From an uncultured Gammaproteobacteria bacterium (lineage in GTDB: Bacteria > Patescibacteriota > Microgenomatia > CAYXHB01 > CAZYTL01): a DNA stretch of 64,000 bases. The notes beneath the pieces are model-generated. The model did no database searches, was not told the origin of the DNA, and worked only from the letters and a program-made list of their open reading frames with translations. The stretch covers positions 11,019 through 75,018 of the forward strand of contig CAZYTL010000006.1 in NCBI GenBank assembly GCA_964650355.1, in the 5' to 3' direction. Shown here one piece after another: positions 3,218 through 64,000 of this stretch (positions are counted from its first letter, which is position 1; each line of letters begins with the position of its first letter). Position numbers and translations under genes: made by a program.

Positions 3218-3478
3218 AGTAAGCATCCTTTTCCTCCGATATGCTTCGGAGGACCTGACCAGGTATTTTCGCTTTCACCACTAGCGGTGAAATGGTTTGA
3301 AAATATCCCTCAGGTAGCGGTAGTAGGGGCTTACTTGAGAAATCAATACCGTTTCGAAGTTTCCCCCAAAGGGACCTCTTCGGGGACGTTTCAAGATAAT
3401 CTATTGATTTTTCAAGGGAGCCTAAGAAAGTAGTTTCAGGCTGTTTGTTTCAAGTTAATATAACTGACTCTTTAACGA

Positions 3479-3560
3479 TTTATTCACTGAGCGCAACGTA
3501 GTGAAGTCGAAGTGTTGATAGGGCTTCGACTACGCCAAGTCAAACTTGGCTTCGCTCAGC
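3479..3560 (+). repeat. structured repeat element copy 1 (TTATTCACTGAGCG...CGCTCAGCC, with internal GTCGAAG/CTTCGAC and CCAAGT/ACTTGG hairpins)
   Basis: Nested inverted repeats read directly from the sequence. It is tandem with copy 2 and lies upstream of the 3672 operon. Confidence 0.5.
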
Positions 3561-3579
3561 CAATAATTACTATTATCCA

Positions 3580-3652
3580 CTTATTCACTGAGTGAGCGTA
3601 GCGAATCGAAGTAAAGGCTTCGATTCAGCAAAGCTTCACTCAGCCGATATTA
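3580..3652 (+). repeat. structured repeat element copy 2 (TTATTCACTGAGTGAGCG...CTTCACTCAGCC)
   Basis: Shares the 5' TTATTCACTGAG motif and the hairpin architecture with copy 1. It ends 20 nt before the start codon at 3672. Confidence 0.5.
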
Positions 3653-3671
3653 ATTTCCAAATTCAAAATTC

Positions 3672-16457: not shown

Positions 16458-16495
16458 AGGAGATCCTATCGCTTCGCTCCAGGATGACGGAAACT
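16458..16495. repeat. dispersed repeat family A copy (GGAGATCCTATCGCTTCGCTCCAGGATGACGG)
   Basis: Read directly from the sequence, immediately downstream of the methyltransferase stop. The same about 33-nt motif recurs at 24892, 54995, 55196 and 55328. Confidence 0.55.
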
Positions 16496-29617: not shown

Positions 29618-32600
29618 TTATAGCTGAAGCCATTCTAAGTAGTCAAGACTATTGACAAGATGGTCGGAACTAAGATCGATTATGGAATGAGGTTTTTTCT
29701 GGCCCCATGTTTGGAGTAGGATTTGAATATCGAAGACATTTATGTTGCCATCATCGTTAAAGTCTCCCTTTAAATTTGGGGGAGACCAGGCACCAGTATG
29801 CCTCTCGTCGTGAAGATATTGTGGCCATTCAAGGGAGTCAATTTCTGAATCTAGGTTAAATACGTACAGTTCTATTCTGCTCGAATTCCTGTAGGTAGTT
29901 ATCACTTCTCCATGTCTATCCAGTTCTAGGTCGGTGAGGATCGGAGTATCCTTAGATGTTGGAGGACCGAGGAGTTTCGGATAGCCTGGGTGTTGGGTAA
30001 CTCCTTCAGCATGGTATTCGAGAATGGTAAAGCCCTTGCTGGCACCTTGACTTCTGCCGATGGTACCGAAGGAGATGATATCCTGAAGCTGGTTTTTTCC
30101 AATGTCAGCTATGACATTTGAAGCAGAATATGGATAATCTAATCGTTGAGGAAAAGGTGGAAGTCCAACTAGACGCTGGCCATTTTTATCCAGAACAATC
30201 CAGTTTCCGGATAAATCCTGTACCAAAATTTCTGGAAGTTTATCGTTATTAATGTCGGCTAAAAGCAGATCGGTGAAGGGGATCTCTACATCTTTAAACT
30301 GTTTAGGCCAATTCGATAAGTATTGGCCTTCTGAGTTAAATACGTGAATTGTAATAATTGGCTGCGGATGGGTGGGATCAGTTCTATCTAGCTTCCCGGC
30401 AGCAATGATTAATTCAGCTTTTTGATTGTTGTCCAGGTCCCCCAAGACAAAGTTCAGATTGGCGTAAATTCCCATATCGATGATTACGGGCCAACCGCTA
30501 TCATTCAGTTTTTGTCCTGCTGCATTATAGGCATAAAAATAATATTTATTTGAAGATATGGTGTGATCAAAGCTGATGGAATATAAAACGATGTCTTTTA
30601 AACCATCACCATTTAGGTCAGCTACTTGGGGAGAATGGAAACTATTGGTCAAGCTATCAAATTTGGGAATAATGACAGGGAAACCAGTAAGATTATTCCC
30701 CTGCGCATCCCAAGCGTATAACTTTTGATCTACACCACTTAAGGCAATTGAATCAAGGAAAATAATTTCAGGTTGGCCATCTTGGTTAAGGTCGTCTGCG
30801 ACAGCACCATATTCAAGTGATTGCTTATTCCCAACGGGAAGGGCACCGAATGGCCAAACAGACTCACCTTGACCATCAAGGGCTAATATGCCTCTTTGGT
30901 GGCTGTCGTTGATCAATGTTTCACCTGGAATAATAATTTCCAGGCCCGGTGAAGGAGAGATATCTGCCAAAATGGGCTCAGCACTAACATAAATAACATG
31001 ATCTGACAAAGAGGATATTTGTTTAGGCCATCCGGGAAGACTTGTTCCCGAAGGGTTGAAGGCATAAAGTTGGGAACGACTTTCGCCTGTAGCGGTTAAG
31101 ATATCTTGACAGTGGATAATGATTTCTTTGAGCAGATCACCATTAATATCGCCTACAATCGGCCGGGAACAATGCTCGGCATCGCCAGGTTGAAGTGGGA
31201 TAGTTATAGGCCAATTTGGCTTTAAGTCTGAGTCGATCTGAAAAGGCTGGGAGGTACTGTTAGAGTAATTGTTGGTAGTGACTGTGAGTTTAAGCAGATA
31301 ATTTCCTGCTGATAAGCCAGGAATTTCCCATATTCCTAAGATGTTGTTATCCACCCGTGAGTTACCTGAGATACCTGTTTCGTGCCACGTTGTAGGGCTG
31401 GTGGCTGATGTGTATTGGATTTGATAGGTGAGGGGTTCAGGGCCGATGACCGTGCCTCTGATGGTTAATTTGCCCTTGGATGCGACTAGCTGGTTATTCC
31501 TGGGGCTATTGATGGCTACTTTAAGAGGTGGTTCCGTGTGCTTAATCTCTGAAAGTGCCCGAAAAGCATTTAGTCGGCCATATCCGAATCTGGTGTCAAA
31601 ACCAGGGGGGCCCAGATCATCTGCGGTATTGAGGAGAATATTTCTTACTTTATCAGGAGAAGTAATCAGCGTAGGCTCTTGGGCGATTACCAACCCTGCG
31701 ACGGCCGCAACATGGGGAGTAGCAAATGAGGTGCCGTTTGCGCGCCAATATTTGAGACTGTCTTCAGGAGGATTGCCCGCTAATGAGAGAGAATCCCAAA
31801 ATGCTTCTGACTCGCATGCCGGATGAGTACAATTTTGGGCGGCAATCAAAGGAATGGTGCCGCCGTCGCTCACCGATACCGAGTTGCCACCCGGGGCTGA
31901 CAGATCGATTTGTTCACCGTAGTTAGAATAGGGGGCGATATGATCACTTTGGTCTGTGGCTGATACAGCTATTACTTGTTCGTATGACGCAGGTGCAACG
32001 TTGGCAATATCTCGGTTATCATTGCCGGCCGCGGCTACCATCACTATATGGTGGTCATAAGCATATGCGACTGCTAATCGCAGACTCTCATCCGCAGTAT
32101 CAGTGTAGGTACCAAAACTCATGTTAATAATATTGGCCCCATGATCAGCCGCGTAGATGATTGAGTTGGCAACGGTGGAGGAGTCACCGCCATTGGGGCC
32201 AAGAGCCTTGATCACTAATAGCTTAGTTTCCCAGAGTATCCCTGCTAATCCTACTTGATTGTTGGTTTTTGCACCTATAATACTGGCTACAGCTGTTCCG
32301 TGGCCGTTACTATCTTGAGGTTCTGAATCGTTTTCATAAAAGTCGTACCCCTTGAGGATTTGTACTCCCTCGAAATCTTTATGGAGGAATGAAGCGTCAA
32401 AATCAAAACCGGTATCGATGATGGCAATGGTGATCTCTGGTGCGCCTGTTTGTAAATCCCAAGCCTCAGGTACTTTTATCTGTTTTAGACTCCACTGATA
32501 GTCAAACGGCGGATTCCATTGGAGCTTTTGGGTATCTGTTCTGTTTTCCGGTGTGTCTCTGATAAAGGGGTCATTTGATAAAATAGCCGGGGTATAAAGA

Positions 32601-33247
32601 TAGTTTGGATGCGCATATTCGATTAAAGGGTGAGATTGCAATTGGCGAACTTTTGAGCTGACGGGAATGTCTTTATCAAAACTAATTTTATAAGTGCGAG
32701 AGAGGTCTGACTCTAAAAATTTTTGCTGCTTACCGCTTTGGGCAAGTAGACTGGAGTTTATTTGAGTAAGGTTTTTTTGAGGATTAGAGTGCCCTTTAAA
32801 AATTTTGTCTACTTTGGTGATTCTTTGCTGTTGGAGAAAACTGACGAGAGACCTGCTTGACGAGTCAGTGGTCTCTAATTCATTGATAGTTATCTCTGCT
32901 TGGTCTAGATTTTTTCCACTAGCTTTTATTGCTTGTTTAACGGATAGTTCAACTTTCGTTCTAATGAGTATTTCTCCTTTGACATAATTAGGAGGTGTCA
33001 TTGCCGACGCCGATAGGGTTGAGAAGGATAAGTTGTTTGGTTTATTTTGTGCAACTTGGGCATGAGTGATAAGAGGAATAAATAAGAGAAGGGAAATTGT
33101 TGTTAGGTAGATTAAAGTTTTACTTGAATAGGAGATTTTAACCATCAAGTCATTATTGAATACCCGATTAAGTAAGTCAAAACTAGTTTCTCGTTTATTA
33201 AATTTCAATATTGTACTTGTGATGAGGGCGGTGGTGAAGAGCGGCAA
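29618..33247 (-). CDS. subtilisin-like S8 serine peptidase with FG-GAP/beta-propeller repeats and C-terminal dockerin-like module
   Basis: - Catalytic triad motifs AIIDTGFD, NGHGTAVASI and GTSFATPHVAAVAGL.
- Repeated D-x-N-x-D-G-x-x-E/D calcium-binding-loop motifs (DINGDLLKEIII, DLNQDGQPEIIF, DLNGDGLKDIVL).
- The C-terminus (GDFNDDGNINVFDIQILL) resembles a dockerin repeat.
- The signal/TM segment suggests the true start is near Met35. Confidence 0.8.
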   Translation of the reverse strand: MPLFTTALITSTILKFNKRETSFDLLNRVFNNDLMVKISYSSKTLIYLTTISLLLFIPLITHAQVAQNKPNNLSFSTLSASAMTPPNYVKGEILIRTKVELSVKQAIKASGKNLDQAEITINELETTDSSSRSLVSFLQQQRITKVDKIFKGHSNPQKNLTQINSSLLAQSGKQQKFLESDLSRTYKISFDKDIPVSSKVRQLQSHPLIEYAHPNYLYTPAILSNDPFIRDTPENRTDTQKLQWNPPFDYQWSLKQIKVPEAWDLQTGAPEITIAIIDTGFDFDASFLHKDFEGVQILKGYDFYENDSEPQDSNGHGTAVASIIGAKTNNQVGLAGILWETKLLVIKALGPNGGDSSTVANSIIYAADHGANIINMSFGTYTDTADESLRLAVAYAYDHHIVMVAAAGNDNRDIANVAPASYEQVIAVSATDQSDHIAPYSNYGEQIDLSAPGGNSVSVSDGGTIPLIAAQNCTHPACESEAFWDSLSLAGNPPEDSLKYWRANGTSFATPHVAAVAGLVIAQEPTLITSPDKVRNILLNTADDLGPPGFDTRFGYGRLNAFRALSEIKHTEPPLKVAINSPRNNQLVASKGKLTIRGTVIGPEPLTYQIQYTSATSPTTWHETGISGNSRVDNNILGIWEIPGLSAGNYLLKLTVTTNNYSNSTSQPFQIDSDLKPNWPITIPLQPGDAEHCSRPIVGDINGDLLKEIIIHCQDILTATGESRSQLYAFNPSGTSLPGWPKQISSLSDHVIYVSAEPILADISPSPGLEIIIPGETLINDSHQRGILALDGQGESVWPFGALPVGNKQSLEYGAVADDLNQDGQPEIIFLDSIALSGVDQKLYAWDAQGNNLTGFPVIIPKFDSLTNSFHSPQVADLNGDGLKDIVLYSISFDHTISSNKYYFYAYNAAGQKLNDSGWPVIIDMGIYANLNFVLGDLDNNQKAELIIAAGKLDRTDPTHPQPIITIHVFNSEGQYLSNWPKQFKDVEIPFTDLLLADINNDKLPEILVQDLSGNWIVLDKNGQRLVGLPPFPQRLDYPYSASNVIADIGKNQLQDIISFGTIGRSQGASKGFTILEYHAEGVTQHPGYPKLLGPPTSKDTPILTDLELDRHGEVITTYRNSSRIELYVFNLDSEIDSLEWPQYLHDERHTGAWSPPNLKGDFNDDGNINVFDIQILLQTWGQKKPHSIIDLSSDHLVNSLDYLEWLQL

Positions 33248-44909: not shown

Positions 44910-45908
44910 ATGGGCAAGAGAAGCAGCAAGGTATTCATCGTCACCAATGAAGATGACCCTCACGTTGACTCGTTAACCCCTCAATTGCAAGCACTGGGTG
45001 CGGAAGTTTTTAGATTTGATACTGAATACTTCCCCACAAAGATAAAGATCAATTTGCAATATACGAGTGGAGACTTGAACGGGGTAATAGAGTGGCCTAC
45101 TGCGAGAGCTAACTTATTTGAGTTTACGAGTGTTTGGTATAGAAGGCCTGTTCGAGGAAAAATATCTAATGAGATTACTAACCCCATTTACAAAAAATTA
45201 GCTAATTCAGAGACAGAGCAATTCTTGTTGCAATTATGGAACGTGATGTTTGAAAAAGGAGTTTTTTTTGTCAGTCCTTGGCAATCCTTGGAAATTGGCG
45301 AAAGGAAACTAGGGCAATTGAAGGTGGCCTCAAAACTGGGAATGCGCACTCCTCAAACACTAGTCACTAACAATATTGATGAGGCAAAAGGATTTTGTAA
45401 ATTTTTAAATAATGATGTGGTGGTTAAGCACATTAGATCCACTTCTTTTATTGATAGCGGACGCAGGCGTCTTTGGTTGGCCACCAAGCATTTGTCTGCT
45501 CAACATTTAAAAAATGTTAGCTATATAAAATACGCCCCTTCCTTTTTGCAAGAGAATATTCACAAAAAATATGATATTAGAGTGACGGTGATTGGTAAAA
45601 AGGTATTTGCGGTTAAAATTGACAGCCAACAATATGAGGACACTAAAATCGATTGGAGGTTTGCAGAACACTCAGAAAGTTTAAAATATGAAGTGATTAA
45701 GTTGCCACAGAGGGTGACAAATTTTTGTTTACAACTAGTCGAGTATTATAAGCTGGCGTTTGGAGCCATTGATTTGGCATTATCTGAAAATGATGAGTAT
45801 GTATTTTTTGAAATAAACCCTAATGGACAATTTCTTTGGCTTGATGATAAAACTGATTTGCAATTGGGAAAAGAGATGGCAAAATTTCTAATACGTGGCA
45901 AAATGTAA
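44910..45908 (+). CDS. ATP-grasp RiPP macrocyclase (microviridin MdnC/MvdD family, graspetide maturase)
   Basis: VFRFDTEYFPTKIKINL, SVWYRRP, PSFLQENI...IRVTVIGKKVFAVKIDSQQYEDTKIDWR and FGAIDLAL...YVFFEINPNGQFLWL track MdnC-family motifs along the whole length. Confidence 0.7.
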   Translation: MGKRSSKVFIVTNEDDPHVDSLTPQLQALGAEVFRFDTEYFPTKIKINLQYTSGDLNGVIEWPTARANLFEFTSVWYRRPVRGKISNEITNPIYKKLANSETEQFLLQLWNVMFEKGVFFVSPWQSLEIGERKLGQLKVASKLGMRTPQTLVTNNIDEAKGFCKFLNNDVVVKHIRSTSFIDSGRRRLWLATKHLSAQHLKNVSYIKYAPSFLQENIHKKYDIRVTVIGKKVFAVKIDSQQYEDTKIDWRFAEHSESLKYEVIKLPQRVTNFCLQLVEYYKLAFGAIDLALSENDEYVFFEINPNGQFLWLDDKTDLQLGKEMAKFLIRGKM

Positions 45909-45910
45909 CT

Positions 45911-47002
45911 ATGTCTGAAAATAACCCATCTACTACTGCAGAGATGCGCTTGCAAATTCCTCTGAAAGGAAAACTGGCTAAGACGGCACAGGATGCTGAG
46001 TCGCCGATTCACTTTGTAGGCAAGAGGCTGGCAGAGAAAGTGGGGGCAAAATTCAGTTTCACAAGTGAAAAAGGAGGCGAAAAAATGAAAATGGGTTCTT
46101 TTTTTGCGGAAATGCTCGAATATGATGGAAAAGAGCAAGTGCCGGAGAGTGACGCCCCGCCGGAAGAATGGAACACCTTTATGAATACATACTTTCAGGA
46201 GTTGGCCGAAAATCCAGACACAGTTAGATTATTCCGCGCTGAAAGATATGGAGAGGGAAAAGTTCCCCGGTTATTGGAAATGCATTTGCCGCCGATGCCA
46301 AAAACTAAAGAGGGCTACCGAGATTTCCTGAGGTCCAGGCATCTATTGGCTGGATTACTAGCCGCGTATCAGCAGGAAATTGTGATGATGGTAGGAGTTA
46401 CCAGAATTATGGATGAATCTGTAATAAAACCTGACCATGAAAGAAGGTTGGGCTTTAATTTCAGTAAAATTGAATTAGACAAACTCGATACCAAACATAG
46501 ATTAGCACAACGAATGATAGCGAAATCACCTAACTTGCCACATAAAGATTTACCAATAAAGGGTATTTATATGCCGACGAAAGAATTTTTAGAAAGGGAT
46601 GAGGTGAGTCTGGCGACAGACGAAGAAGGCTGGTTTTTGCAAGCGGGTCCGGTGAAATTTAATTTTTATAAAGCAGGTGAACTAGACATGGAACGTTTAA
46701 GTGCTGATGAGCCGTCCGATAATGTGGACGAAATTGAGGTGGAAATGCCTGGAAATATTAATGAAATAAGTGCAAAAGATAGAGAAAGAGCAAAGTATGT
46801 ACTGGCTGGGTTTTTAAGAAATTTATTACTAGTAGGGACGGTTTCAATGGTCGTAGACGCTGAGAATCCTGACCAAATCCAATTGGCAAAGGATTTGGGG
46901 ATGAAGAGGGGACGGCGTGAAGGGGAAGGTAAAATCAGACTACAGACTACGAGGGCCCTTTTGGAAGAGGAGTGTTATGTACCAACGGGAGAATTCAAGT
47001 AA
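45911..47002 (+). CDS. hypothetical protein, third gene of the graspetide-like operon
   Basis: 363-aa ORF starting 3 nt after the ATP-grasp stop. No TM segment and no recognised family. Confidence 0.5.
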   Translation: MSENNPSTTAEMRLQIPLKGKLAKTAQDAESPIHFVGKRLAEKVGAKFSFTSEKGGEKMKMGSFFAEMLEYDGKEQVPESDAPPEEWNTFMNTYFQELAENPDTVRLFRAERYGEGKVPRLLEMHLPPMPKTKEGYRDFLRSRHLLAGLLAAYQQEIVMMVGVTRIMDESVIKPDHERRLGFNFSKIELDKLDTKHRLAQRMIAKSPNLPHKDLPIKGIYMPTKEFLERDEVSLATDEEGWFLQAGPVKFNFYKAGELDMERLSADEPSDNVDEIEVEMPGNINEISAKDRERAKYVLAGFLRNLLLVGTVSMVVDAENPDQIQLAKDLGMKRGRREGEGKIRLQTTRALLEEECYVPTGEFK

Positions 47003-50124: not shown

Positions 50125-50499
50125 AGTTGTTTGTTTTTGTTTACGACCTATAGTCTACATTATGGAAGAAGATTTGTCAACTTTTAATTTGTTTCAGATT
50201 TAGATTTGATGTTTTAAGGAAAAATTAATAGTTGACAGGGGAGAAGAAATACAGCATATTAGGGAATTGAAAAGACTTCTTCTGCCCGATGCTTCTTTTC
50301 ACAAGTTTGTACCGATGACACTGATCGGGATCAGCGCAGACGGTATCAATTTTTGTTTATACATAATTAAGGTAATTTACTTCACTGGCCGCAATCGGAG
50401 GTGATTGTCTGGAATTAGGAATTATGAATTAGGGGATAGTTGTTGATTGATTCATGATTCTTGATTCATAATTTCATAATTCTTTTTTCGACTTTTATG

Positions 50500-51921
50500 A
50501 ATTCGAGATTCAGACTCATCAGCAGCGTGCTAGTGATCGGGGTAATCATCGCAGCAGTTTTGGGCGCAAGCAGCGCCTTTTTTAGTGACAAAGAAACGAG
50601 TCCTGACAACACGCTGGTGGCCGGAGCAGTGGATTTGAAGATTGATAACACGAGTTATTACAACGGAGAACCTTCTCCGGACACGAGTTGGACTTTGAAT
50701 GATTTGACGGATCAGTTGTTTTTTAATTTCTTGGACGTGAAGCCAGGGGACAGGGGAGAGGACACGATTTCTTTGCATGTGGATGACAATGACGCCTGGG
50801 CGTGCATGAATGTGGAGTTGACCAAGGATGATGACGCGACTTGTACTGAACCGGAACAAATAGATGATCCCACGTGTGATGAACCGGATGAGCCGGAAGA
50901 TTTGTGGGACGGAGAACTGGGAGGGTTGATTAATTTTATTTTCTGGGGTGATGACGGAGACAATGTGTTGGAGCAAGACGAAACTGATTTGGTATTTAAG
51001 GAAGGCACGGCGTCAGCGGTGCTGGCCAATGGGGTATGGAAGCTGGCTGATTCAACAGGCAATATCTGGGATGAGTTTCAGCATCCTCTGCAGGGAGGCA
51101 AGGATTATTACATTGGCAAGGCCTGGTGTTTGGGCCAGCTGACTGAAGCGCCTCTGGAGCAAGACGGCAAAGGGGCGGATAGCGACAGAACACCCGCGAA
51201 TTCCACAGGCGGAGTGCTTTGTGACGGGTCAGGATTGAACAACGCGGCGCAGTCTGATATTTTGATGGCCAATATCGGGTTTTCTGCGATTCAGTCCAGG
51301 CACAACCCGGACTTTACCTGCGGGGAAAACGGGGGAGAGCCGTGCTTTAAGAAGGCTGATTTGATGTTGGTATTGGATCGGTCAGGCAGCATCAATGATA
51401 CAGAATTGGCAACGTTGAAGACGGCGGCCAAAGCGTTTGTGGATGCGCTGGCATTGTCTGCTAATGGCCCGCATGCCGGGGAGGTGAGTTTTGCGACCAC
51501 GGCCAATCTGGACCAGCACTTGACTGATAATCCGGCATCAGTGAAGGCGGTGATTGACGCTCTGGTGCACAACGGGTTTACTGATTTGAAAGACGCGCTT
51601 GATCTGGCTACCGGAGAGCTGGCCAATCCGGGAGACTTACATGACAGACCTGACCTTGAATCACCTGATTATATTATTTTGATTACTGATGGGAATCCGA
51701 ACCGGCCAGACCCGAACACAGCAGTGGCTGAGGGAAGTGCGGCGGCGACCGCGGCTAAGAATGCAGGGATCACGATTTATGTGGTAGGAGTGGGAAGTGA
51801 TGTGGACACGGCTTATTTGCGGGATGATATTGCCACCGACCCGGCGCACTATTTCGCAGCAAATGATTTTGGAGATTTGTCAACGATCCTGGCAACGATA
51901 GCCCAGTGCCCGAATGAATAG
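50500..51921 (+). CDS. TasA/camelysin-like protein with SipW-cognate signal peptide and C-terminal vWA domain
   Basis: The N-terminus (MNSRFRLISSVLVIGVIIAAVLGASSAFFSDKETSPDNTLVAGAVDLKIDN) matches the SipW-cognate signal class. The C-terminal MIDAS motif (VLDRSGSINDTE...ILITDGNPN...IYVVGVGSD) indicates a vWA domain. The start at 50500 is chosen over 50461 by comparison with the two paralogs. Confidence 0.7.
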   Translation, partial: NSRFRLISSVLVIGVIIAAVLGASSAFFSDKETSPDNTLVAGAVDLKIDNTSYYNGEPSPDTSWTLNDLTDQLFFNFLDVKPGDRGEDTISLHVDDNDAWACMNVELTKDDDATCTEPEQIDDPTCDEPDEPEDLWDGELGGLINFIFWGDDGDNVLEQDETDLVFKEGTASAVLANGVWKLADSTGNIWDEFQHPLQGGKDYYIGKAWCLGQLTEAPLEQDGKGADSDRTPANSTGGVLCDGSGLNNAAQSDILMANIGFSAIQSRHNPDFTCGENGGEPCFKKADLMLVLDRSGSINDTELATLKTAAKAFVDALALSANGPHAGEVSFATTANLDQHLTDNPASVKAVIDALVHNGFTDLKDALDLATGELANPGDLHDRPDLESPDYIILITDGNPNRPDPNTAVAEGSAAATAAKNAGITIYVVGVGSDVDTAYLRDDIATDPAHYFAANDFGDLSTILATIAQCPNE

Positions 51922-51932
51922 AGAATCGTTGT

Positions 51933-51960
51933 GCGTTTCGACGTTTCACGTTTCAACGTT
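51933..51960. repeat. GAAACG/CGTTTC-heptamer repeat block flanking the four-helix-bundle gene (left)
   Basis: gcgtttcgacgtttcacgtttcaacgtt. A direct copy is at 52350-52379 and an inverted copy at 52390-52431. Confidence 0.5.
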
Positions 51961-51987
51961 GGTGGTTTTTGTGTTTAAAAGTTATTT

Positions 51988-52305
51988 ATGTCTAGTTCGT
52001 ATCAAGAATTGGATGTGTGGAAGCTTGGTGTAGAACTAGCAGTGTTGGTATATAGAGTAACCAGTCAATTTCCTCAACATGAATTGTACGGCCTCACCAG
52101 TCAAATGCGCAGAGCCTCGGTAGCCGTGGCTTCGAACATTGCGGAAGGTCAAGGCCGGGGATCGAGGAAGGAATTTCGACAATTTTTAAGGATTGCATTT
52201 GGTTCGCTTTTAGAATTAGAAACTCAAGTCGTAATAGCTGAAAGAATTGGATATTTAAATCAAGCTGAGAAGGATAAAATTTTGGAGATGAGCTTGAGGG
52301 TTTAG
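51988..52305 (+). CDS. four-helix-bundle protein (23S rRNA intervening-sequence protein/Avd-like family)
   Basis: ELDVWKLGVELAVLVYRVTSQFPQHELYGLTSQMRRASVAVASNIAEG...EFRQFLRIAFGSLLELETQVVIAER is the family signature. Confidence 0.75.
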   Translation: MSSSYQELDVWKLGVELAVLVYRVTSQFPQHELYGLTSQMRRASVAVASNIAEGQGRGSRKEFRQFLRIAFGSLLELETQVVIAERIGYLNQAEKDKILEMSLRV

Positions 52306-52348
52306 CAAATGATTTTTAAGTTAGAAAAATCTTTAATAAAGTAAAGTA

Positions 52349-52433
52349 AGCGTTGCACGTTTCTCGTTTTTCGTTTCGGCATTCGATCGCGAAACTTAAC
52401 GATGAAACGTTGAAACGAGAAACGCGAAACGTT
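52349..52433. repeat. right-hand direct + inverted GAAACG-type repeat block after the four-helix-bundle gene
   Basis: gcgttgcacgtttctcgtttttcgtttcgg followed by cgaaacttaacgatgaaacgttgaaacgagaaacgcgaaacg. Together they form a long imperfect hairpin. Confidence 0.5.
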
Positions 52434-52454
52434 TTAGAGAGGAGGTGAGAAAAA

Positions 52455-53327
52455 ATGCAAAAGAGAATTTTATTCAGTTTGATGATTATCGGCATTGTCG
52501 GAGCAGTAGTGTTCGGAGCCACCAGAGCGTTTTTCAGCGACACAGAAACGTCATATGATAATACTTTTGTGGCCGGAGATATTGACTTGCAAATTGACAA
52601 TGAAAGTTACGCCATTGACTACAACATCCCCCAGTATGACGGGACGCCGGTCGGCGCGTTGGTATTGAGCGGACTTACCTCATGGCCGATGGGGGATCTA
52701 GATCTTGAGAAGTTTTTCGACTTTAGAGACCTGAAGCCAGGGGACTACGGCGAAGATACCATTTCCGTGCACGTGGGCAGCAATAATGCCTGGTTGTGCG
52801 CCGCAGCGCAAATCACTGATGATTCAGACCAGACCTGTACAGAACCAGAGTTAGAGGATGATGCCAATTGTGCTGAACCCGGAGAAGGATTGGGCGAACT
52901 TGATGAAGGAGTCAATTTCGCTTTCTGGGTTGATGATGGGGACAACGTGCTTGAATCAGACGAAAAAGGATCGATCTTCCTTAACGGTCCGCTAAGCGGA
53001 TTAAGCGAAGCCGGGCAGATCGCACTGGCTGATTCAGAGCACAGCATCCTAGGCGGTAATGAACCTATTCCCGGAGGAACGACCTTTTATATCGGGAAAG
53101 CCTGGTGCTTTGGAAACCTAACCCCAGATCCAGTTGAACAAGGCGAAGGTGGTCCACTAGATCGGGAAACAACCGGATTTAACTGCGATGGTTCCCAAGT
53201 GAAAAATGCGGCCCAGACCGATCAGGTGGTGGGCGATTTGCAGTTCTACGCAGAACAGTCCCGCAACAATGGTCAATTCCTGTGCAGCAATTGGACGCCA
53301 AACTGGGAGCGGCCAGAAGAACCTTAG
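52455..53327 (+). CDS. TasA/camelysin-like protein with SipW-cognate signal peptide
   Basis: MQKRILFSLMIIGIVGAVVFGATRAFFSDTETSYDNTFVAGDIDLQIDN, and blocks shared with its paralogs (KPGDYGEDTISVHV, TCTEPE, YYIGKAWCFG). A GGAGG SD is present. Confidence 0.7.
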   Translation: MQKRILFSLMIIGIVGAVVFGATRAFFSDTETSYDNTFVAGDIDLQIDNESYAIDYNIPQYDGTPVGALVLSGLTSWPMGDLDLEKFFDFRDLKPGDYGEDTISVHVGSNNAWLCAAAQITDDSDQTCTEPELEDDANCAEPGEGLGELDEGVNFAFWVDDGDNVLESDEKGSIFLNGPLSGLSEAGQIALADSEHSILGGNEPIPGGTTFYIGKAWCFGNLTPDPVEQGEGGPLDRETTGFNCDGSQVKNAAQTDQVVGDLQFYAEQSRNNGQFLCSNWTPNWERPEEP

Positions 53328-53450
53328 GACTAACCTAGAACCTGAGTGTCTACCGAGCTCTCCTGTCCGATCTGAAGATCAGAGCCGGAGATTCGGTGGG
53401 CAGTCAGAGGTGCGAAGTGTAAGGCTTCGCGCTTGTGACTGCCCCTCCAA
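53322..53450 (+). repeat. repeat family B copy (CCTTAG.AACCT...CCGAGCTCTCCTGTCC...GCCGGAGATTCGGTGGGCA)
   Basis: Read directly from the sequence. A second copy is at 55430-55545. Confidence 0.4.
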
Positions 53451-53503
53451 AATGTTTCCAGGTTTTTATTAGCTGTTATCTGCTCGGAAGGAGGTGTATG
53501 TAA

Positions 53504-54889
53504 ATGAAAAAGGTGCTTTATAGTATAATGTTGATCGGGATTGTAGGAACTGTAGTTTACGCAGCCACCAATGCCTTTTTCAGCGATACGGAAACTTCGG
53601 TCGGGAATACGTTCGAAGCCGGAGCCATTGATTTGCAGATTGATAATGAGAGCTGGTATAACGGTGAGCCGCGCGAGGATTTATCCTGGGATTTAAGAGA
53701 TTTGACGATTGAAAAGTTCTTTGATTACGCGGATTTGAAACCCGGAGATTGGGGCGAAGATACAGTGAGTCTGCACGTGACCAGCAACCCGGCTTACGCG
53801 TGTGTAGCTTTCCGGATTACGGAAAACAGTGACAACGGGATTACTGAGCCTGAAGACGAAGTTGACGGCAATATTGACCAGGCTGACGGCACGGCTGACG
53901 GTGATCTGGCCCAAGAACTGCATTTCGCTTTCTGGGTAGATGACGGAGACAACGTGCTGGAAGACAATGAGGTTGAATCGCTGGTGGGAGGCCAGGCGGC
54001 TGATGTGTTTGAACAAGGCATATATGCTTTGGCTGATTCCCAGGGCGGGTTGTTTGAAGAAGCGTTGCAGCCGGAAACCGATTATTACATTGGCAAGGCC
54101 TGGTGTTACGGAGACATGAGTCCGGAGCCGGTACCAGCCGGACAAAGCGAGGATCCAAGTGTGGCATCAGGAATTACCTGTAACGGGCAGCCGGTGAGTA
54201 ATATTTCCCAGACAGACAAGTTGGTGGGGGATATTCAGTTCTACGCGGTGCAGACCAGGCACAATGAAGAGTTCCTGTGTAGCAGGGATTATGAACCTAC
54301 ATGGCCAAGACAAATCACGTCAACTACTGGTGACGGCTGGGCAAGCGTGGGTGGAGATTTCACCGAAGCTTGGCAAGCCGACGGTCGCTGGGGTGACGGA
54401 GGGACTTCCAATGCAGAAAATGAAGTTCGTGTTGGACTGGCTGGCGGTGGAAGCCCACAAGCTCAACACCAGAGCGATAACTCTACCGGCCCTTGGAGAA
54501 ATGGGGTAACTGAAAGCTTTACTCTCACCTATGACGGTGGGACTGAAGCAGCCTTGACTATCGGTGATACCACGGCAGATACCACAGTTGACTTACCTTT
54601 GGGTGATGTTCCCGGTGCTAACGGAAAAATCGGGATTACAGTCAAGACTTACGTGGATGATACCGAAGTTAAAGTTGAAAACGTAAAACTTGACGGGATG
54701 TCTCCAGTAGGTCCTGACAGCGTTAGCGAATCAGTCAATGGATCAAAAGAATACCTGGTCATCAGTGGCCTGACAGAGTTGTCTGACGGGTTCACTTTGA
54801 CAGGTGATTTGACATTCACTTGGGGCGGAACAACGCCTTCCTCAGCAGAGGATATGTCCATGCTCATCCAAGTGGAAAATGCGCCTTAG
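53504..54889 (+). CDS. TasA/camelysin-like protein with SipW-cognate signal peptide and extra C-terminal domain
   Basis: MKKVLYSIMLIGIVGTVVYAATNAFFSDTETSVGNTFEAGAIDLQIDN and shared paralog blocks. About 170 aa of additional C-terminal sequence. Confidence 0.7.
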   Translation: MKKVLYSIMLIGIVGTVVYAATNAFFSDTETSVGNTFEAGAIDLQIDNESWYNGEPREDLSWDLRDLTIEKFFDYADLKPGDWGEDTVSLHVTSNPAYACVAFRITENSDNGITEPEDEVDGNIDQADGTADGDLAQELHFAFWVDDGDNVLEDNEVESLVGGQAADVFEQGIYALADSQGGLFEEALQPETDYYIGKAWCYGDMSPEPVPAGQSEDPSVASGITCNGQPVSNISQTDKLVGDIQFYAVQTRHNEEFLCSRDYEPTWPRQITSTTGDGWASVGGDFTEAWQADGRWGDGGTSNAENEVRVGLAGGGSPQAQHQSDNSTGPWRNGVTESFTLTYDGGTEAALTIGDTTADTTVDLPLGDVPGANGKIGITVKTYVDDTEVKVENVKLDGMSPVGPDSVSESVNGSKEYLVISGLTELSDGFTLTGDLTFTWGGTTPSSAEDMSMLIQVENAP

Positions 54890-54923
54890 TTTTGAGACTA
54901 AGTCTGCCCAATTTAACTTGGAG

Positions 54924-54986
54924 GTTGCCAAGTCTTTGGAGGCTTGGCAATCTGCCGCAGTCCCGAAGGGAATCGGGGTTGCGGCA
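54924..54986 (+). terminator. two consecutive hairpins (TTGCCAAG-N10-CTTGGCAA; CTGCCGCA-N20-TGCGGCAG) after the third TasA-like gene
   Basis: Perfect 8-bp stems read directly from the sequence, 35 nt after the stop. Confidence 0.4.
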
Positions 54987-54994
54987 GGTTAGTT

Positions 54995-55037
54995 AGAGAT
55001 CCTTCGATCCACCAAATGGCGGACTCAGGATGACATG
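54995..55037. repeat. repeat family A, degenerate copy (GAGATCCTTCGATCC...GGACTCAGGATGACATG)
   Basis: Read directly from the sequence. Confidence 0.4.
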
Positions 55038-55182
55038 AATTAATATTAAATTGAGGAATGTCAATTTCCGCAAATTTACCGCGGAATTACCGCAGCCTAG
55101 TGGGTGGGCTGTCAAAGCCTTGATTGAACGTAGGTCTTGTCATTCTGGAACAAGCCAGGTGCCAGAAGATACCTGGCGCAGT

Positions 55183-55245
55183 GATAGAATCTCGGAGATC
55201 CTATCGGCCCGATAAGAATCGGACCTCCAGGATGACGGAAGGCGT
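55183..55245. repeat. repeat family A copy with internal expansion (GATAGAATC..GGAGATCCTATCGGCCCGATAAGAATCGGACCTCCAGGATGACGGAAGGCGTCAT)
   Basis: Read directly from the sequence. Contains ATGACG/CGTCAT and ATCGG/CCGAT inverted repeats. Confidence 0.5.
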
Positions 55246-55327
55246 CATGTTAATCAGGGTTTTGACAGCTTAACTACATGATAAATGTGATTTGGAGTTG
55301 TGTACTTTGAGGCTAATTTAGCCTTAA

Positions 55328-55362
55328 GGGGATCCTATCGCTACGCTCCAGGATGACGGGGG
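55328..55362. repeat. repeat family A copy (GGGGATCCTATCGCTACGCTCCAGGATGACGGGGGG)
   Basis: Read directly from the sequence. Confidence 0.5.
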
Positions 55363-55429
55363 GAGTAAGTCCTGCTGTTAGTTTAAGCTGGCGACAAGTT
55401 CCTGGACAAAAGTGAAGGGACTTGCAAAA

Positions 55430-55545
55430 ACCTTAGAACCTATCATGGTGAACCGATGCTAAATTCGGTTCTCATGGTTGATCTGCCGAGCTCTCCTGTC
55501 CTGTAAAAAGAGTTTGGTGCCGGAGATTCGGCGGGCAACCACAGT
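55430..55545 (+). repeat. repeat family B copy
   Basis: CCTTAGAACCT...CTGCCGAGCTCTCCTGTCC...GTGCCGGAGATTCGGCGGGCA. Confidence 0.4.
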
Positions 55546-55649
55546 TCTGCAAACCTGTCTGCATGCCGGGTAAAATAGGAGTTGAAGGATTGTGGCAGCC
55601 GAAGTAAAACCTTACTGAGCAATAAAAGGTTATAATTAAGGGGAAACTT

Positions 55650-56000
55650 ATGGCTGTTCTGTTAACGGGAGAGATCCTTGACGAGATAAGGACCAAGGGG
55701 GAGGAGATGGAAATGGGGTATTATTTCCGTCTTGGTCCGGACATTTATATCAGAATCACTAATCCGGAAGAAGAGATCCCGGAAGCAGGTAGAGGTGGCA
55801 TAGAGGAGCGGGTTGATGACTCAGGCACTTACGAAGTACTGAATGACCCGACGATGATGCAATTTATCAGCGATTTTCATGATCCTAGCCGGATTAAAGA
55901 GACCCGAGGTTATTTGCTACCTATTTTAGTGCCAAGAGGATTTATGTTATTAACTGCTCAACGGGATTTTTTCCGTAGAATTCCCGAGGAATTTCAGTAG
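55650..56000 (+). CDS. hypothetical protein
   Basis: 116-aa ORF with a weak SD and no recognised family. Confidence 0.35.
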   Translation: MAVLLTGEILDEIRTKGEEMEMGYYFRLGPDIYIRITNPEEEIPEAGRGGIEERVDDSGTYEVLNDPTMMQFISDFHDPSRIKETRGYLLPILVPRGFMLLTAQRDFFRRIPEEFQ

Positions 56001-56049
56001 CCGTATCACGTAATACGTAGCACGTAACAATATATTAATTCCTGATTCA

Positions 56050-57165
56050 TTGTTAAATACTATGCAGTCTTTACATTACTTATTCAGAATTTTTCAATTA
56101 TTAGTGACTATTTTGGTGGTGGTGTTCGCCGGGGTGCTGATTCTGACGGCTTTGCCGGTGAAAGGGAATATTAAATTGTTAACGGTGCTGTCCGGTTCAA
56201 TGGGGCCCACGATTCCGGTGGGCAGCGCGGTGTTGATCAAGCCGGTTGATCATTACCTAACCAATGAGGTGATTACTTATGCCCGCGGGGGCAATGAAAA
56301 GCAGCTGGTAACGCACAGGATTGTGGCTACGCAGTTTGTGAACGGGGAAAAGCAGTATATTACTAAAGGAGACGCCAACGAGGATCCGGATCCGGCCGTG
56401 GTAAAAGCTGATCAGGTGAAGGGGCAGGTGTTGCTGACGGTGCCGTATCTGGGATATGTGGCGAATTGGATCAAGACGCCGGCCGGGTTTGTGAGTCTGA
56501 TTGTGTTGCCGGCGGCGATTTTGATTTACGGAGAGTTGATGGCAGTGAAAAATGAGATGGTGAGAGCATGGAAGAAAAGGCATTTGGGAGTGCTGGCGTT
56601 GTTAGTGGTGATAGCGGCCGGATGGCAGTTAAACAGTAATACTCAGGCGATGCTGGAAGACAGGGAAGTGAGCGAGATGAATACGATCCAGGCGTGGGTA
56701 GAAGGTACGGCCGTGGAAGTTCAGACGGACGGAACGCAGGAAACAACCCCGACAGGTGAGCCGTCTCCAACGCCTCCTGAAGGAGCCAATTTGGTGATTA
56801 ATGAGTTGTTAGCCAATCCTCAAACAGATTTTACTTATGAATGGGTGGAAATTTATAATCCCACCGGAGCGGATGTGGATCTGACTGACTGGGCGTTGAA
56901 GGATGCGGCAAATCCTGCAAAAAGTTTATCCGGATTAGGGACAATTTCGGCCGGAGGATTTAAGGTTTATAGCGACCATAATTGGTTAAATAATAGTGGG
57001 AGTGAAACTTTGCAATTAATGTTTCCGGGTACCAATGTAGTAGACGAGGTCACATACACTGGCACGTCAGCTGACGTGTCGCATGGTAGGGAAACTGACG
57101 GAGGGCTGCCGTGGAAAGACTGCGGCACGGCAACTCAAGGCAGTTCGAATAATGGCAGCTGCTAA
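56050..57165 (+). CDS. SipW-type (archaeal-type) signal peptidase I fused to a C-terminal lamin-tail domain
   Basis: N-terminal TM segment, then LSGSMGPTIPVGSAVLIKP...VTHRIV...ITKGDANEDPDPAVV (catalytic Ser/His region of SipW-like SPases). The C-terminus (LVINELLANPQTDFTYEWVEIYNPTGADVDLTDWAL) is an LTD signature. Confidence 0.75.
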   Translation: MLNTMQSLHYLFRIFQLLVTILVVVFAGVLILTALPVKGNIKLLTVLSGSMGPTIPVGSAVLIKPVDHYLTNEVITYARGGNEKQLVTHRIVATQFVNGEKQYITKGDANEDPDPAVVKADQVKGQVLLTVPYLGYVANWIKTPAGFVSLIVLPAAILIYGELMAVKNEMVRAWKKRHLGVLALLVVIAAGWQLNSNTQAMLEDREVSEMNTIQAWVEGTAVEVQTDGTQETTPTGEPSPTPPEGANLVINELLANPQTDFTYEWVEIYNPTGADVDLTDWALKDAANPAKSLSGLGTISAGGFKVYSDHNWLNNSGSETLQLMFPGTNVVDEVTYTGTSADVSHGRETDGGLPWKDCGTATQGSSNNGSC

Positions 57166-57175
57166 ATGAATCAGG

Positions 57176-58324
57176 ATGTTAAAAAGGCGAATTTTAACTA
57201 TTTTATTTTTGGCTTTGTTGGTAGGGATCGGTTGGTGGGGAGTGGATCACCAGGGGTGGTTGATTCAGGCGGCCGGACCGCTGGTGGTGACCTGGGAGGA
57301 CACGCCATTGTTTTATGTGACTAATATGCTGCCCGGAGACAGCGAGTCCAAGACGATCGGATTTGATAATCAAAAGGACCAGAGTGTGCAGATCGGGTTA
57401 AGAGCGATAAAAGTGGAAGAGGATCCGACTGATCCGGCGATTTCTCAGGTGTTGGATGTGGTAGTGGAAAAGGTGGGAGGAAGTGTGTTGTATGGACAGG
57501 GTAGTCCGGGCGGAGCAAAGACGTTGGCAGATTTGTTAATGGAATTTGACGGCAGCGACTCGCTGGTGTTGGGAACTTTGGCGCCTGGAGATAAAGCTGA
57601 TTACATGATGACGGTGGAGATGCCTACATGGGTCGGGAATGAATACCAGGGCGCCAAGGTGGTGTTTAATTTGCAGGTGATTACTGATCATAAGGCCTTG
57701 GATTTGCCGCCGGAATGTGAGCATTTGAGAGGCACGATCACGGCAGTGATTGAAGGCACGGAGGGGAAGGATGTGCTGCGAGGGACTTCGGCCAATGAGC
57801 TGATTATCGGATACGGAGAAAAGGATAATATCAAAGGCAATGGAGGCGATGATTGCCTGGTGGGAGGAGACGGGGATGACCATATTAACGGGGGAACAGG
57901 GAATGATGTGCTGATCGGGGGAGAAGGTAATGATGATTTGGACGGGCATTTTGGCAATGATTTGATCTACGGAGGCAATGGAAATGATTTGCTGAAAGGC
58001 AAGCAGGGACAGGATGTGTTTTACGCCGGAGAAGGGGATGACAAAGTGCGTGCCGGGTCAGGCGAAGACCTGATTTTCGGAGGACCAGGGAATGACCAAT
58101 TGGAAGGAGGAGGAGACGATGATTTGATTTTTGGGGAAGCGGGAAATGACATGATTAAAGGTGACAGTGGGGATGATGTGATTGAAGGGGGACAGGGAGA
58201 TGATGACATGAACGGCAACAGCGGGGATGATCATTTGACCGGGGATGCGGACACGGACAAGGCTAACGGGAGCTCGGGAACTGATACCTGCGACGCGGAG
58301 ACGGAAATTCACTGCGAGCTATGA
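57176..58324 (+). CDS. membrane-anchored protein with RTX-type (GGxGxDxUx) calcium-binding repeats
   Basis: N-terminal TM helix and a central domain. The C-terminal array (GGDGDDHINGGTGNDVLIGGEGNDDLDG...) is a run of hemolysin-type repeats. Confidence 0.6.
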   Translation: MLKRRILTILFLALLVGIGWWGVDHQGWLIQAAGPLVVTWEDTPLFYVTNMLPGDSESKTIGFDNQKDQSVQIGLRAIKVEEDPTDPAISQVLDVVVEKVGGSVLYGQGSPGGAKTLADLLMEFDGSDSLVLGTLAPGDKADYMMTVEMPTWVGNEYQGAKVVFNLQVITDHKALDLPPECEHLRGTITAVIEGTEGKDVLRGTSANELIIGYGEKDNIKGNGGDDCLVGGDGDDHINGGTGNDVLIGGEGNDDLDGHFGNDLIYGGNGNDLLKGKQGQDVFYAGEGDDKVRAGSGEDLIFGGPGNDQLEGGGDDDLIFGEAGNDMIKGDSGDDVIEGGQGDDDMNGNSGDDHLTGDADTDKANGSSGTDTCDAETEIHCEL

Positions 58325-62877: not shown

Positions 62878-63555
62878 TTAGTCTGCAAGACTACAGACAG
62901 GTACGCAGACCTGGATACAGGCTCGAGTACTGGGTTGATGGCGGCAGGCAGAAGCACAGGAGTCATAAGTACCCCCGAGAATTTGAGTGCAATCCTGATC
63001 TTTGATGTTTTCACACTCCTGATATTGATCCAGCCACTGGCCACCTAACTGTTCACAGAGTGACTGGTGGTCAGAAGATCGGGGTTGTTCGCAGGTTTGC
63101 TGGCATTGTTCAAGGGTGTTAAAGGGGACCACACCTTGACAACCGCCCCAGAGAAATTGCTGGCACGACTGTGTTTGGTGGTCAAAGTAATATTTGGGAA
63201 AAGCTGCCTCGCAGGGGCCGGCTTTAGGAACCAAGTTACAGCGGAAGGTACATTTGGCAGGTTGATAATCGCAACTATCTGGATCACAGGGGTCAAGATT
63301 GGGTTGGCATTTGGAGATTCTGTCTCGATCGACCGGGGAACCGGTGGTGGAATCAGGTGAGGGGCTGGGGTTTACAACAGGTGAAGATTGAAAGGTGGGT
63401 GGACCTTTAAATATCTGCTGTCCGGTGAGGAGGATGATGACCAGGGCAGGGATGAAAATGATGATGAGGAGCACAAATGGCAACACATACCACCACGGAA
63501 GGCGGGGAAGGATTGATGGGTGTTTGTCAGAGGATGAGGTGGAAGGTGCGTCCAT
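62878..63555 (-). CDS. membrane-anchored protein with Kunitz/BPTI-type domain and a second Cys-rich domain
   Basis: TM helix (WWYVLPFVLLIIIFIPALVIILL). The block CNLVPKAGPCEAAFPKYYFDHQTQSCQQFLWGGCQGVVPFNTLEQCQQTC has Cys spacing 8/15/7/11/2 and the F-x-(Y/W)-GGC motif characteristic of Kunitz domains. Confidence 0.55.
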   Translation of the reverse strand: MDAPSTSSSDKHPSILPRLPWWYVLPFVLLIIIFIPALVIILLTGQQIFKGPPTFQSSPVVNPSPSPDSTTGSPVDRDRISKCQPNLDPCDPDSCDYQPAKCTFRCNLVPKAGPCEAAFPKYYFDHQTQSCQQFLWGGCQGVVPFNTLEQCQQTCEQPRSSDHQSLCEQLGGQWLDQYQECENIKDQDCTQILGGTYDSCASACRHQPSTRACIQVCVPVCSLAD

Positions 63556-63627
63556 GGTGATAACGAATTTTAAAGGATTGGCAGTGAGATTAGCAAAAGG
63601 ATTTTGATTTCTAAAGGTTTGAAAAAA

Positions 63628-64000
63628 TTAATCTATACATAACTCCGGGGCCAGTTGGCTGTTCTCAACAAAGCTGAAACAGCCAAAGATATGCTCGTAA
63701 TTAGCACACTGGCCAGGAATCTTGCCTTCATAACTAATACACCGACCCGATTGACATTGACCACCGTCAGTACAAGATTGATCGGCATCTGAATAAGGGA
63801 TCTGGCAAAACTCCCGGCCGACTATCCCCCAAGCCCGCCAGTCTCCGCCAGCTGCTTCACAGGCTTCCTTGGTTGAAGGCGCTTCTGAAGGGGTGGGAGA
63901 AGGAATCGGAGTCAGTGACTGATCCAAAAACCGGAAGGTGGAGAGGATTTGGTTGATAAGTTGGTGTTTTTTTAGACCTCCACCAAACTCTTCATCATCC
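63628..64000 (-). CDS. cysteine-rich protein, N-terminus beyond window edge
   Basis: The frame stays open to position 64000. The C-terminal part has 9 Cys (CEAAGGDW...CTDGGQCQSGRC...) and resembles the second Cys-rich domain of the adjacent Kunitz protein. Confidence 0.4.
   Translation of the reverse strand, partial: DDEEFGGGLKKHQLINQILSTFRFLDQSLTPIPSPTPSEAPSTKEACEAAGGDWRAWGIVGREFCQIPYSDADQSCTDGGQCQSGRCISYEGKIPGQCANYEHIFGCFSFVENSQLAPELCID

Follow-up and report, generated by a model that had tools for sequence, protein, structure and literature searches.

A putative TasA-like fibre operon with a dedicated SipW-type signal peptidase in Candidate Phyla Radiation bacteria

The gene cluster and its proteins

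We analysed a 64,000 nucleotide (nt) stretch of contig CAZYTL010000006.1 (hereafter the window) from a genome of the Candidate Phyla Radiation (CPR, Patescibacteria). Five related genes are located on the plus strand of the window between positions 50461 and 58324. They encode three TasA-like paralogs, a SipW-type signal peptidase that carries a lamin-tail domain (LTD; the protein is called SipW-LTD here) and a protein with RTX repeats. The interpretation of this locus as a TasA-like fibre system with a dedicated SipW, which an earlier note had proposed from the DNA letters, is supported by the domain searches, the structure prediction and the comparison of related loci. The genes and their features, in window positions, are:

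50461/50497-51921, plus strand: TasA-like paralog 1 (486/474 amino acids, aa), TasA-like core with a C-terminal von Willebrand factor A (vWA) domain
50530-50628, plus strand: SipW-type signal and donor-strand motif of paralog 1
51358-51891, plus strand: vWA domain of paralog 1 with the metal ion-dependent adhesion site (MIDAS) DRSGS (PF00092, 82.1 bits)
52455-53327, plus strand: TasA-like paralog 2 (290 aa), TasA-like core with no added domain
53504-54889, plus strand: TasA-like paralog 3 (461 aa), core with a choice-of-anchor W domain
54350-54844, plus strand: choice-of-anchor W domain of paralog 3 (residues 283-447; NF041928, 90.8 bits, cut-off 45)
56050-57165, plus strand: SipW-LTD (371 aa), SipW-type peptidase with LTD
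56101-56535, plus strand: catalytic domain of SipW-LTD (S50, H89 and D108 in the numbering of the 371 aa protein)
56563-56649, plus strand: signal-like h- and c-region of SipW-LTD (R172-A200), after the second transmembrane (TM) segment and a basic loop
56650-56703, plus strand: predicted cleavage site after A200 and donor-strand motif MLEDREVSEMNTIQAWVE of SipW-LTD
56764-57162, plus strand: LTD of SipW-LTD (residues 243-337; PF00932, 52.5 bits against 34.3)
57176-58324, plus strand: RTX protein (382 aa), TasA-like domain with RTX repeats
57188-57250, plus strand: N-terminal hydrophobic segment of the RTX protein
57260-57700, plus strand: TasA-like jelly-roll of the RTX protein, lacking the AFFSD donor-strand motif
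57755-58294, plus strand: RTX nonapeptides in 20 registers (aa 194-373; PF00353, 128.8 bits)

As described in the earlier note, the paralogs are encoded in this order and the SipW-like peptidase gene lies downstream of them. The three paralog genes are, however, not strictly consecutive: a gene for a 23S_rRNA_IVP four-helix-bundle protein (51988-52305, plus strand, 105 aa; PF05635, 119.8 bits; TIGR02436) is located between paralogs 1 and 2. A similar gene is found downstream of the cluster in the related locus L001, and it looks like a small mobile-type CPR gene outside of the fibre system.

The longest open reading frame (ORF) of paralog 1 begins with TTG at 50461, the likely start being the ATG at 50497. 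The three paralogs can be aligned over about 290 residues with 36-51% identity, paralogs 1 and 2 being 51% identical. The conserved blocks reported earlier were recovered in this alignment with the exception of TCTEPE, which reads GITEPE in paralog 3. All three N-termini score above the cut-off of 19 bits of the hidden Markov model (HMM) for SipW-cognate signals, TIGR04088 (21.1, 24.9 and 20.0 bits for paralogs 1, 2 and 3), in agreement with the proposed signal type. The N-termini (MNSRFRLISS, MQKRILFS and MKKVLYS) have no RR motif and are therefore Sec-type signals. In paralog 2 the signal reads MQKR...GATRA and is followed directly by FFSDTETS; the conserved motif after the signal is AFFSDxETSxxNTFxAGxIDL, and this post-cleavage strand is nearly invariant across CPR.

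The proteins differ in their C-terminal cargo, as had been proposed: the vWA domain of paralog 1 has an intact MIDAS (its sequence shows DRSGS, GFTD and ITDG, corresponding to the pattern DxSxS...T...D), paralog 2 carries nothing after the core, and the additional domain of about 170 aa in paralog 3 could be assigned to choice-of-anchor W. A search of the latter domain against PDB sequences gave nothing useful. The core-family HMM built in this analysis matches paralogs 1 and 3 with 346 and 366 bits. Paralog 2, which has the jelly-roll core with six cysteines and acidic loops (FWVDDGDN) but no cargo, is the candidate for the major subunit. All proteins of the cluster are very acidic (about 18% D+E).

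The structure of paralog 2 was predicted with AlphaFold using 63 homologs. The model has a mean pLDDT of 84.8, and values below 50 occur solely just after the signal peptide. Such low values would be expected for a strand that pairs in trans. Comparison of the model with Foldseek identified the TasA fibre (8AUR) as the sole PDB match at E≤1e-3; other donor-strand filaments, namely the archaeal thread 7PNB, AbpA (7UEG) and CanX (9H8B), are high in the structural ranking. Thus, the modelled core has its best PDB match in the TasA fibre, as predicted by the assignment to the TasA/camelysin jelly-roll fold. The sequence similarity is confined to a short region: PF12389 matches paralog 2 at residues 17-50 only (22.9 bits, cut-off 22.5), reaches 19.7 bits with paralog 3 and does not match paralog 1. 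The core-family profile found no match among PDB sequences at E≤10, and therefore the link to TasA rests on the fold and the N-terminal motif.

SipW-LTD starts either at TTG 56050 or at ATG 56062. Its peptidase domain is of the archaeal/endoplasmic reticulum (ER) type: it scores 97.3 bits with TIGR02228 (cut-off 51.85) and 16.8 bits with the LepB-type model TIGR02227 (cut-off 47), which confirms that it is SipW-like and not a LepB. The best PDB sequence matches are human SEC11C and SEC11A, and the columns with SGSM (S50), HR (H89) and KGD (D108) are aligned. The alignment to the human proteins reveals Ser-His(-Asp) catalytic residues and not Ser-Lys. With 92.4 bits the protein remains below the cut-off of 190 of the Bacillus SipW equivalog model NF046067; it is of the same enzyme type as Bacillus SipW, with no ortholog-level match.

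The presence of a C-terminal lamin-tail domain, reported before, is confirmed by PF00932; its description as unusual does not hold within this clade, where such fusions are not unusual. A search of the LTD module against PDB sequences gave nothing useful. Between the peptidase and the LTD the protein reads ...RAWKKRH-LGVLALLVVIAAGW-QLNSNTQA followed by MLEDREVSEMNTIQAWVE, a Pro/Thr-rich linker and the LTD. The layout of this internal segment corresponds to that of a Sec signal: a basic n-region is followed by an h-region of 14 residues and by a c-region whose last residues are T-Q-A. The motif aligns column by column with KAFFFDEEMSQENVITAW (from P0243, which is 64% identical overall) and with ...SASFFSDTEGSLGNLFRAGEW. 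Compared with the HMM of the N-termini of the paralogs, it has an E-value of 2e-4 as a single sequence and an independent E-value (i-E) of 0.094 window-wide. A hydrophobic segment and a strand motif after the catalytic domain are present in 82 of the 121 SipW proteins that have a C-terminal extension of more than 60 aa, and the motif of the window can be aligned to these 82 column by column; in the aligned fusions the motif is preceded by small residues with A or S at position -1.

Many Parcubacteria-type loci encode a short SipW of 170-210 aa, and the next gene, which often overlaps or abuts it, codes for an LTD protein. These separate LTD proteins begin with a SipW-type signal and a strand motif, for example ...TISYFSDTETSVDNF and ...LAFYGDYENSGGNLF. 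Microgenomates-type loci encode SipW and LTD in a single ORF, and the LTD module of this lineage consists of strand and LTD without a jelly-roll. SipW-LTD looks like a fusion of SipW with the downstream gene for a putative donor-strand and LTD substrate, which stands on its own in other CPR lineages. Two other types of SipW fusion were observed, one with RTX repeats (P0301, 452 aa, PF00353) and one with LysM (P0286, PF01476). Both have a weak internal match to the strand motif, which suggests that fusion of a substrate to the SipW peptidase is a recurrent theme.

The RTX gene starts 10 nt past the stop codon of SipW-LTD. At least 12 RTX nonapeptides had been counted in its product; we found 20 uninterrupted registers of nine residues each, 17 of which fit the loose pattern GGxGxDx followed by a hydrophobic residue. 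Its 51 full-length homologs share a conserved N-terminal domain of about 150 aa (...AVGDLxVxWGVPxGDPIFxVxNMLPGD...GNEYQxAxVVFDLxIGI) and, like the protein itself, the invariant C-terminus ...TDTCxAETExxCEL. PF12389 is matched by 10 of the 51 family members (best E 7.6e-6). The sole PDB sequences touched by the profile of the N-terminal domain are those of TasA, 5OF1 and 8AUR; these matches are weak and cover both co-linear motifs. Alignment of the RTX-type domain to the core family with hhalign gave a probability of 76% over the segment from the signal to PGD.

A regular expression for the strand motif found 63 of 63 core proteins and one of 51 RTX-type proteins, in which the match is at a spurious position; TIGR04088 does not match the RTX protein. 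In the RTX-type alignment the hydrophobic N-terminal segment runs nearly straight into the equivalent of ...NTFxAGxIDL, and therefore the AFFSDxETS part is missing in this family. The RTX protein remains far below the cut-offs of toxin and protease families secreted by type I systems (87.7 against 1000 for NF033943 and 53.1 against 500 for NF035945), and unlike these it has an N-terminal hydrophobic segment and the invariant C-terminal CEL. Judged from these comparisons, it is a fourth TasA-fold protein, predicted to lack the donor strand, and not an unrelated neighbour.

Sortase genes are located close to the cluster in the related loci L001 and L002, and an involvement of sortase was therefore considered. 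It was dropped, as Pfam scans of the window ORFs of at least 150 aa detected no sortase and the cluster proteins contain no LPXTG motif.

Occurrence in CPR genomes

Relatives have been confirmed in 322 species genomes. Among 1.84 billion representatives clustered at 50% identity, the core family comprises 824 clusters for E≤1e-30 and 1,815 for E≤1e-10. Its members are 263-921 aa long, and their C-terminal cargo includes vWA, SpaA-like, beta-helix, DUF642 and subtilase domains; P0503 is an example of a subtilase on the TasA-like core. For a surface protein the core protein is unusually well conserved, with 57-69% identity between distant lineages.

We fetched 78 loci from CPR genomes and annotated them with HMMs built in this analysis. 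The genomes are mostly titled Woese-, Levy-, Kaiser-, Zambryski-, Nomura-, Taylor-, Yonath- or Portnoybacteria, CPR3, Paceibacterota and similar. The number of paralogs per locus is between one and five, most often two or three. In all 66 assessable loci SipW is encoded on the same strand not more than 1.5 kb downstream of the last paralog. An LTD is fused to SipW or adjacent to it in 29 of 53 assessable loci (fused in 16), and a groove-only TasA-like gene is located downstream of SipW in 21 of 48 loci (10 of these with RTX repeats and four with LTD); the HMMs may miss divergent copies of both modules. Searches for homologs of SipW-LTD and of the RTX protein, together with three contigs with called genes, agree with this operon picture. 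Exact-sequence look-ups with the SipW-LTD of the window and with P0001 gave no recorded contig. The comparison of the locus across relatives, which the earlier note had recommended, thus shows that gene order and modules recur across CPR lineages. The system is a conserved CPR-wide operon, of which the window contains the Microgenomates-type version.

Other features of the window

Paralog 3 and SipW-LTD are separated by a 1.16-kb stretch (54890-56049) that consists of 760 nt of non-coding DNA and an orphan ORF of 116 aa (55650-56000). The ORF has no family match and is absent from the related loci. No Rfam match was found in 54850-56060 at E≤1. The idea that 54881-56060 is a decayed copy of a cluster gene was ruled out, and the stretch has no relative in 82 loci.

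This stretch contains copies of an intergenic palindromic repeat (GGATCCTATCGC..CGCTCCAGGATGACGG), found in the window at 16461-16490, 55196-55238 and 55329-55359, with a variant at 54999-55035. Its 13-nt core has eight matches with up to two mismatches (1.4 expected), and it looks like a REP-type element. In addition, a hairpin of approximately 55 nt, CU(A/G)CCGAGCUCUCC...GGAGAUUCGG(U/C)GGG, is present in two copies (53347-53402 and 55476-55540) that differ by a compensatory change from A-U to G-C. The first copy starts 20 nt past the stop codon of the cargo-free paralog 2, and the hairpin may have a stabilising or attenuating function. A search of the related loci did not find this motif, and a strong hairpin after the cargo-free paralog as a mark of the major subunit was not significant across loci (Mann-Whitney p=0.07).

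The remaining part of the window is ordinary chromosome with genes for L25, DnaK/GrpE/HrcA, transketolase and similar proteins. The flanking genes for proteins of 204, 662, 363, 433 and 163 aa have no Pfam match and no counterpart in four related loci and were treated as outside the system. A scan for promoters and terminators was uninformative, and Rfam gave no match in the whole window at the gathering threshold.

Several other observations were made in the window. Over positions 1-64000 all 2-kb bins have a positive GC skew, irrespective of which strand is coding, and the cumulative skew climbs steadily to 6.4, which recalls the strand composition disparity reported for a Microgenomates genome (PMC7143001). 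Positions 2001-4000 have a G+C content of 0.58 (0.40-0.49 elsewhere) and contain overlapping ORFs on both strands (2124-3119 plus, 2315-3226 minus); the first of these has no Pfam match, and the region has no Rfam match. At 44910-47002 (plus strand) an MvdD-type ATP-grasp protein (PF21068 and RimK) is encoded, directly followed by a 363 aa protein without family match; the two could represent a peptide-modification pair of the graspetide type. At 62878-63927 (minus strand) a secreted, Cys-rich protein is encoded that has a Kunitz/BPTI domain (PF00014, 51.8 bits) and adjoins a small Cys-rich ORF; this match seemed unexpected in a bacterial genome. Two very large proteins are encoded on the minus strand, a 1209 aa subtilase with FG-GAP repeats (29618-33247) and a 1079 aa DUF4012 protein (10425-13664).

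Proposed fibre assembly and comparison with known systems

CPR bacteria represent a very large and mostly uncultured share of bacterial diversity and apparently live attached to host cells. Their attachment is largely unexplained beyond type IV pili. We consider it likely that the operon encodes a donor-strand fibre of the TasA superfamily with a dedicated SipW and a division of labour between initiator, polymeriser and terminator. Fibre formation, cleavage and polarity are steps that we infer, as follows. SipW would cut each precursor between A and FF and thereby free the strand, which would enter the groove of the following subunit as it does in TasA. In the manner of TapA or TafC, the strand-only LTD piece would serve as initiator, set free by a cut between A200 and M201 or, in other lineages, made separately. 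The paralogs, which have both strand and groove, would polymerise and display the adhesins. The groove-only RTX protein would end the chain, and if its N-terminal helix is not cleaved it would anchor the fibre to the membrane, like TafF in the haloarchaeal tat-fimbriae (tafi). We favour growth at the cell-proximal end, where new subunits would still be held by their signal peptides; the LTD would then be located at the tip. The fibre would probably allow the episymbiont to adhere to a host cell or matrix in a Ca2+/Mg2+-dependent manner; hints of a dependence on divalent cations come from the RTX repeats, the MIDAS and the acidic DDGDN loops.

The polarity of the fibre and the self-cleavage of SipW-LTD are more tentative than the fibre itself. 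The most far-reaching version of the proposal is speculative: SipW-LTD would process itself, its own cut between A200 and M201 freeing the strand-plus-LTD initiator at the very site of precursor processing, the fibre would grow from the base, the groove-only RTX protein would lock it to the membrane, and the whole would be a hitherto undescribed CPR-wide host-attachment fibre distinct from type IV pili.

Several observations weigh against the proposed assembly. Sequence similarity to TasA is limited to the signal and strand region, and the signs of polymerisation by exchange of the N-terminal donor strand are indirect, namely the near-invariant strand motif and its low pLDDT in the model of the monomer. 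Cleavage of SipW-LTD is a prediction, and the internal motif of the window is the most degenerate of the set (ML for FF; window-wide i-E 0.094), so that the case for a substrate module rests on the alignment with the homologs. The RTX protein has a conserved alanine (A32) with small residues upstream, and its N-terminal helix could be a cleaved signal instead of an anchor. In this genome the 1.16-kb insertion separates paralog 3 from SipW. Finally, neither of these two modules is universal: an LTD was detected in just 29 of 53 loci and a groove-only gene in 21 of 48.

Because the N-terminal segment of the RTX protein might be cleaved, the same fibre with the opposite polarity is a serious rival, even if we regard it as rather unlikely. 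Following the TapA model of B. subtilis, the LTD piece would be a cell-bound nucleator, either uncleaved and tied to SipW by the third hydrophobic segment or attached to the wall via its LTD; secreted subunits would be added distally, and the released RTX protein would cap the tip, its Ca2+-folded beta-roll being the adhesin there. TapA has been described as a cell-associated nucleator that supplies the first strand (PMC9674648), the initiator would be kept at the membrane by its fusion to a membrane enzyme, and in RTX-type proteins the first strand is preceded by an invariant Ala with AxA-like neighbours, which fits signal cleavage. On the other hand, the spacer between the hydrophobic segment and A32 is 12-16 residues in the RTX family, which is long for a c-region. 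In the SipW fusions the internal site has retained the hallmarks of a cleavable signal (n/h/c layout, small residues with A or S at -1), and in many lineages the LTD protein is separate, cleavable and secreted. Moreover, distal growth by freely diffusing monomers would be wasteful for a tiny monoderm cell.

It is improbable that no fibre is formed and that the TasA-like domain is a SipW-dependent secretion or carrier module for monomeric adhesins and enzymes, with the RTX and LTD proteins as independent exoproteins that share the peptidase. This would fit the large and varied cargo of most family members (vWA, SpaA-like, beta-helix, subtilase), the remote similarity to TasA and the fact that TasA itself is soluble as a monomer (PMC9674648). 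A mere carrier hardly explains why the strand motif is near-invariant across CPR and reused on the LTD module; in addition, the complementary set of strand-only, strand-plus-groove and groove-only proteins recurs in one operon, and the top structural neighbours are filament subunits. We give very little weight to the reading of the paralogs as camelysin-type metalloproteases or as precursors of ribosomally synthesized and post-translationally modified peptides. It stems from names, the Pfam family being called Peptidase_M73 and homologs being labelled 'predicted ribosomally synthesized peptide with SipW-like signal peptide' in Joint Genome Institute (JGI) annotations. No HExxH motif is present in any protein of the cluster, and the Pfam match is confined to the signal and strand region. 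With 290-486 aa and a confidently predicted jelly-roll the paralogs are not short precursor peptides.

The occurrence of TasA homologs in Patescibacteria is on record only as part of the Pfam distribution of PF12389 (PMC9245690). In the literature we found no description of the CPR operon, of a SipW-LTD (peptidase-substrate) fusion or of a TasA-RTX protein. The operon is a concrete and testable candidate for an attachment or matrix fibre with interchangeable adhesin domains. It would extend the TasA family of donor-strand fibres to a new clade, with parts that map onto the roles of initiator, polymeriser and terminator. If true, the fusion of a signal peptidase and its own apparent substrate would link processing with fibre initiation in an unusual manner.

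The closest comparison is the tapA-sipW-tasA operon of B. subtilis (8AUR, 5OF1). There, the strand of TasA freed by SipW completes the fold of the next subunit, and TapA is thought to supply the first strand (PMC9674648). Both systems encode a dedicated ER/archaeal-type signal peptidase beside its substrates and a jelly-roll subunit with an N-terminal strand right after the cleavage site. Both also have a putative non-polymerising accessory protein with a strand, TapA there and the LTD module here; this is a functional analogy only, based on a strand motif combined with a beta-sandwich that does not polymerise. In contrast to B. subtilis, the CPR core is divergent in sequence with extra Cys-rich acidic loops, there are two to five paralogs with adhesin cargo, and the strand-only accessory, which has an LTD, either forms a fusion with the peptidase or is encoded directly after it. 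CPR also have the groove-only TasA-fold protein with an RTX beta-roll, and the organisms that carry the system are CPR episymbionts.

For the haloarchaeal tafi of Haloarcula hispanica the proposed order is the tip protein TafC, then TafE as adapter, TafA as core and TafF as anchor, whose pilin-like domain accepts the last strand (PMC11821415). The logic of initiator or tip, polymeriser and strand-accepting anchor would be the same in CPR. Additional TM segments and a second extracytoplasmic domain are shared by SipW-LTD and the tafi peptidase TafD (PMC11821415); an internal substrate-like cleavage motif has not been reported for TafD. The tafi subunits have twin-arginine (Tat) signals, whereas the CPR proteins have no twin-arginine motif. 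Furthermore, TafF is anchored by a C-terminal TM helix while the hydrophobic segment in CPR is N-terminal, and RTX, vWA or LTD modules are not found in tafi.

Archaeal bundling pili, threads and AbpX (7UEG, 7PNB) belong to the same TasA superfamily of donor-strand filaments. AbpX is encoded adjacent to a TIGR02228 peptidase and assembles in a Ca2+-dependent manner (bioRxiv 10.64898/2026.01.04.697558). The CPR proteins are very acidic (18% D+E) and paired with RTX and MIDAS modules, and a role of Ca2+ for the CPR core via the DDGDN loop is only a lead. The archaeal systems differ by their single small subunits without adhesin cargo. In chaperone-usher and sortase pili a subunit that accepts but does not donate (for example PapH or the basal pilins) ends polymerisation and fixes the fibre at the cell, the part proposed here for the groove-only RTX protein. 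The folds and the assembly machinery of these pili are unrelated, and the CPR fibre would need no chaperone, usher or sortase.

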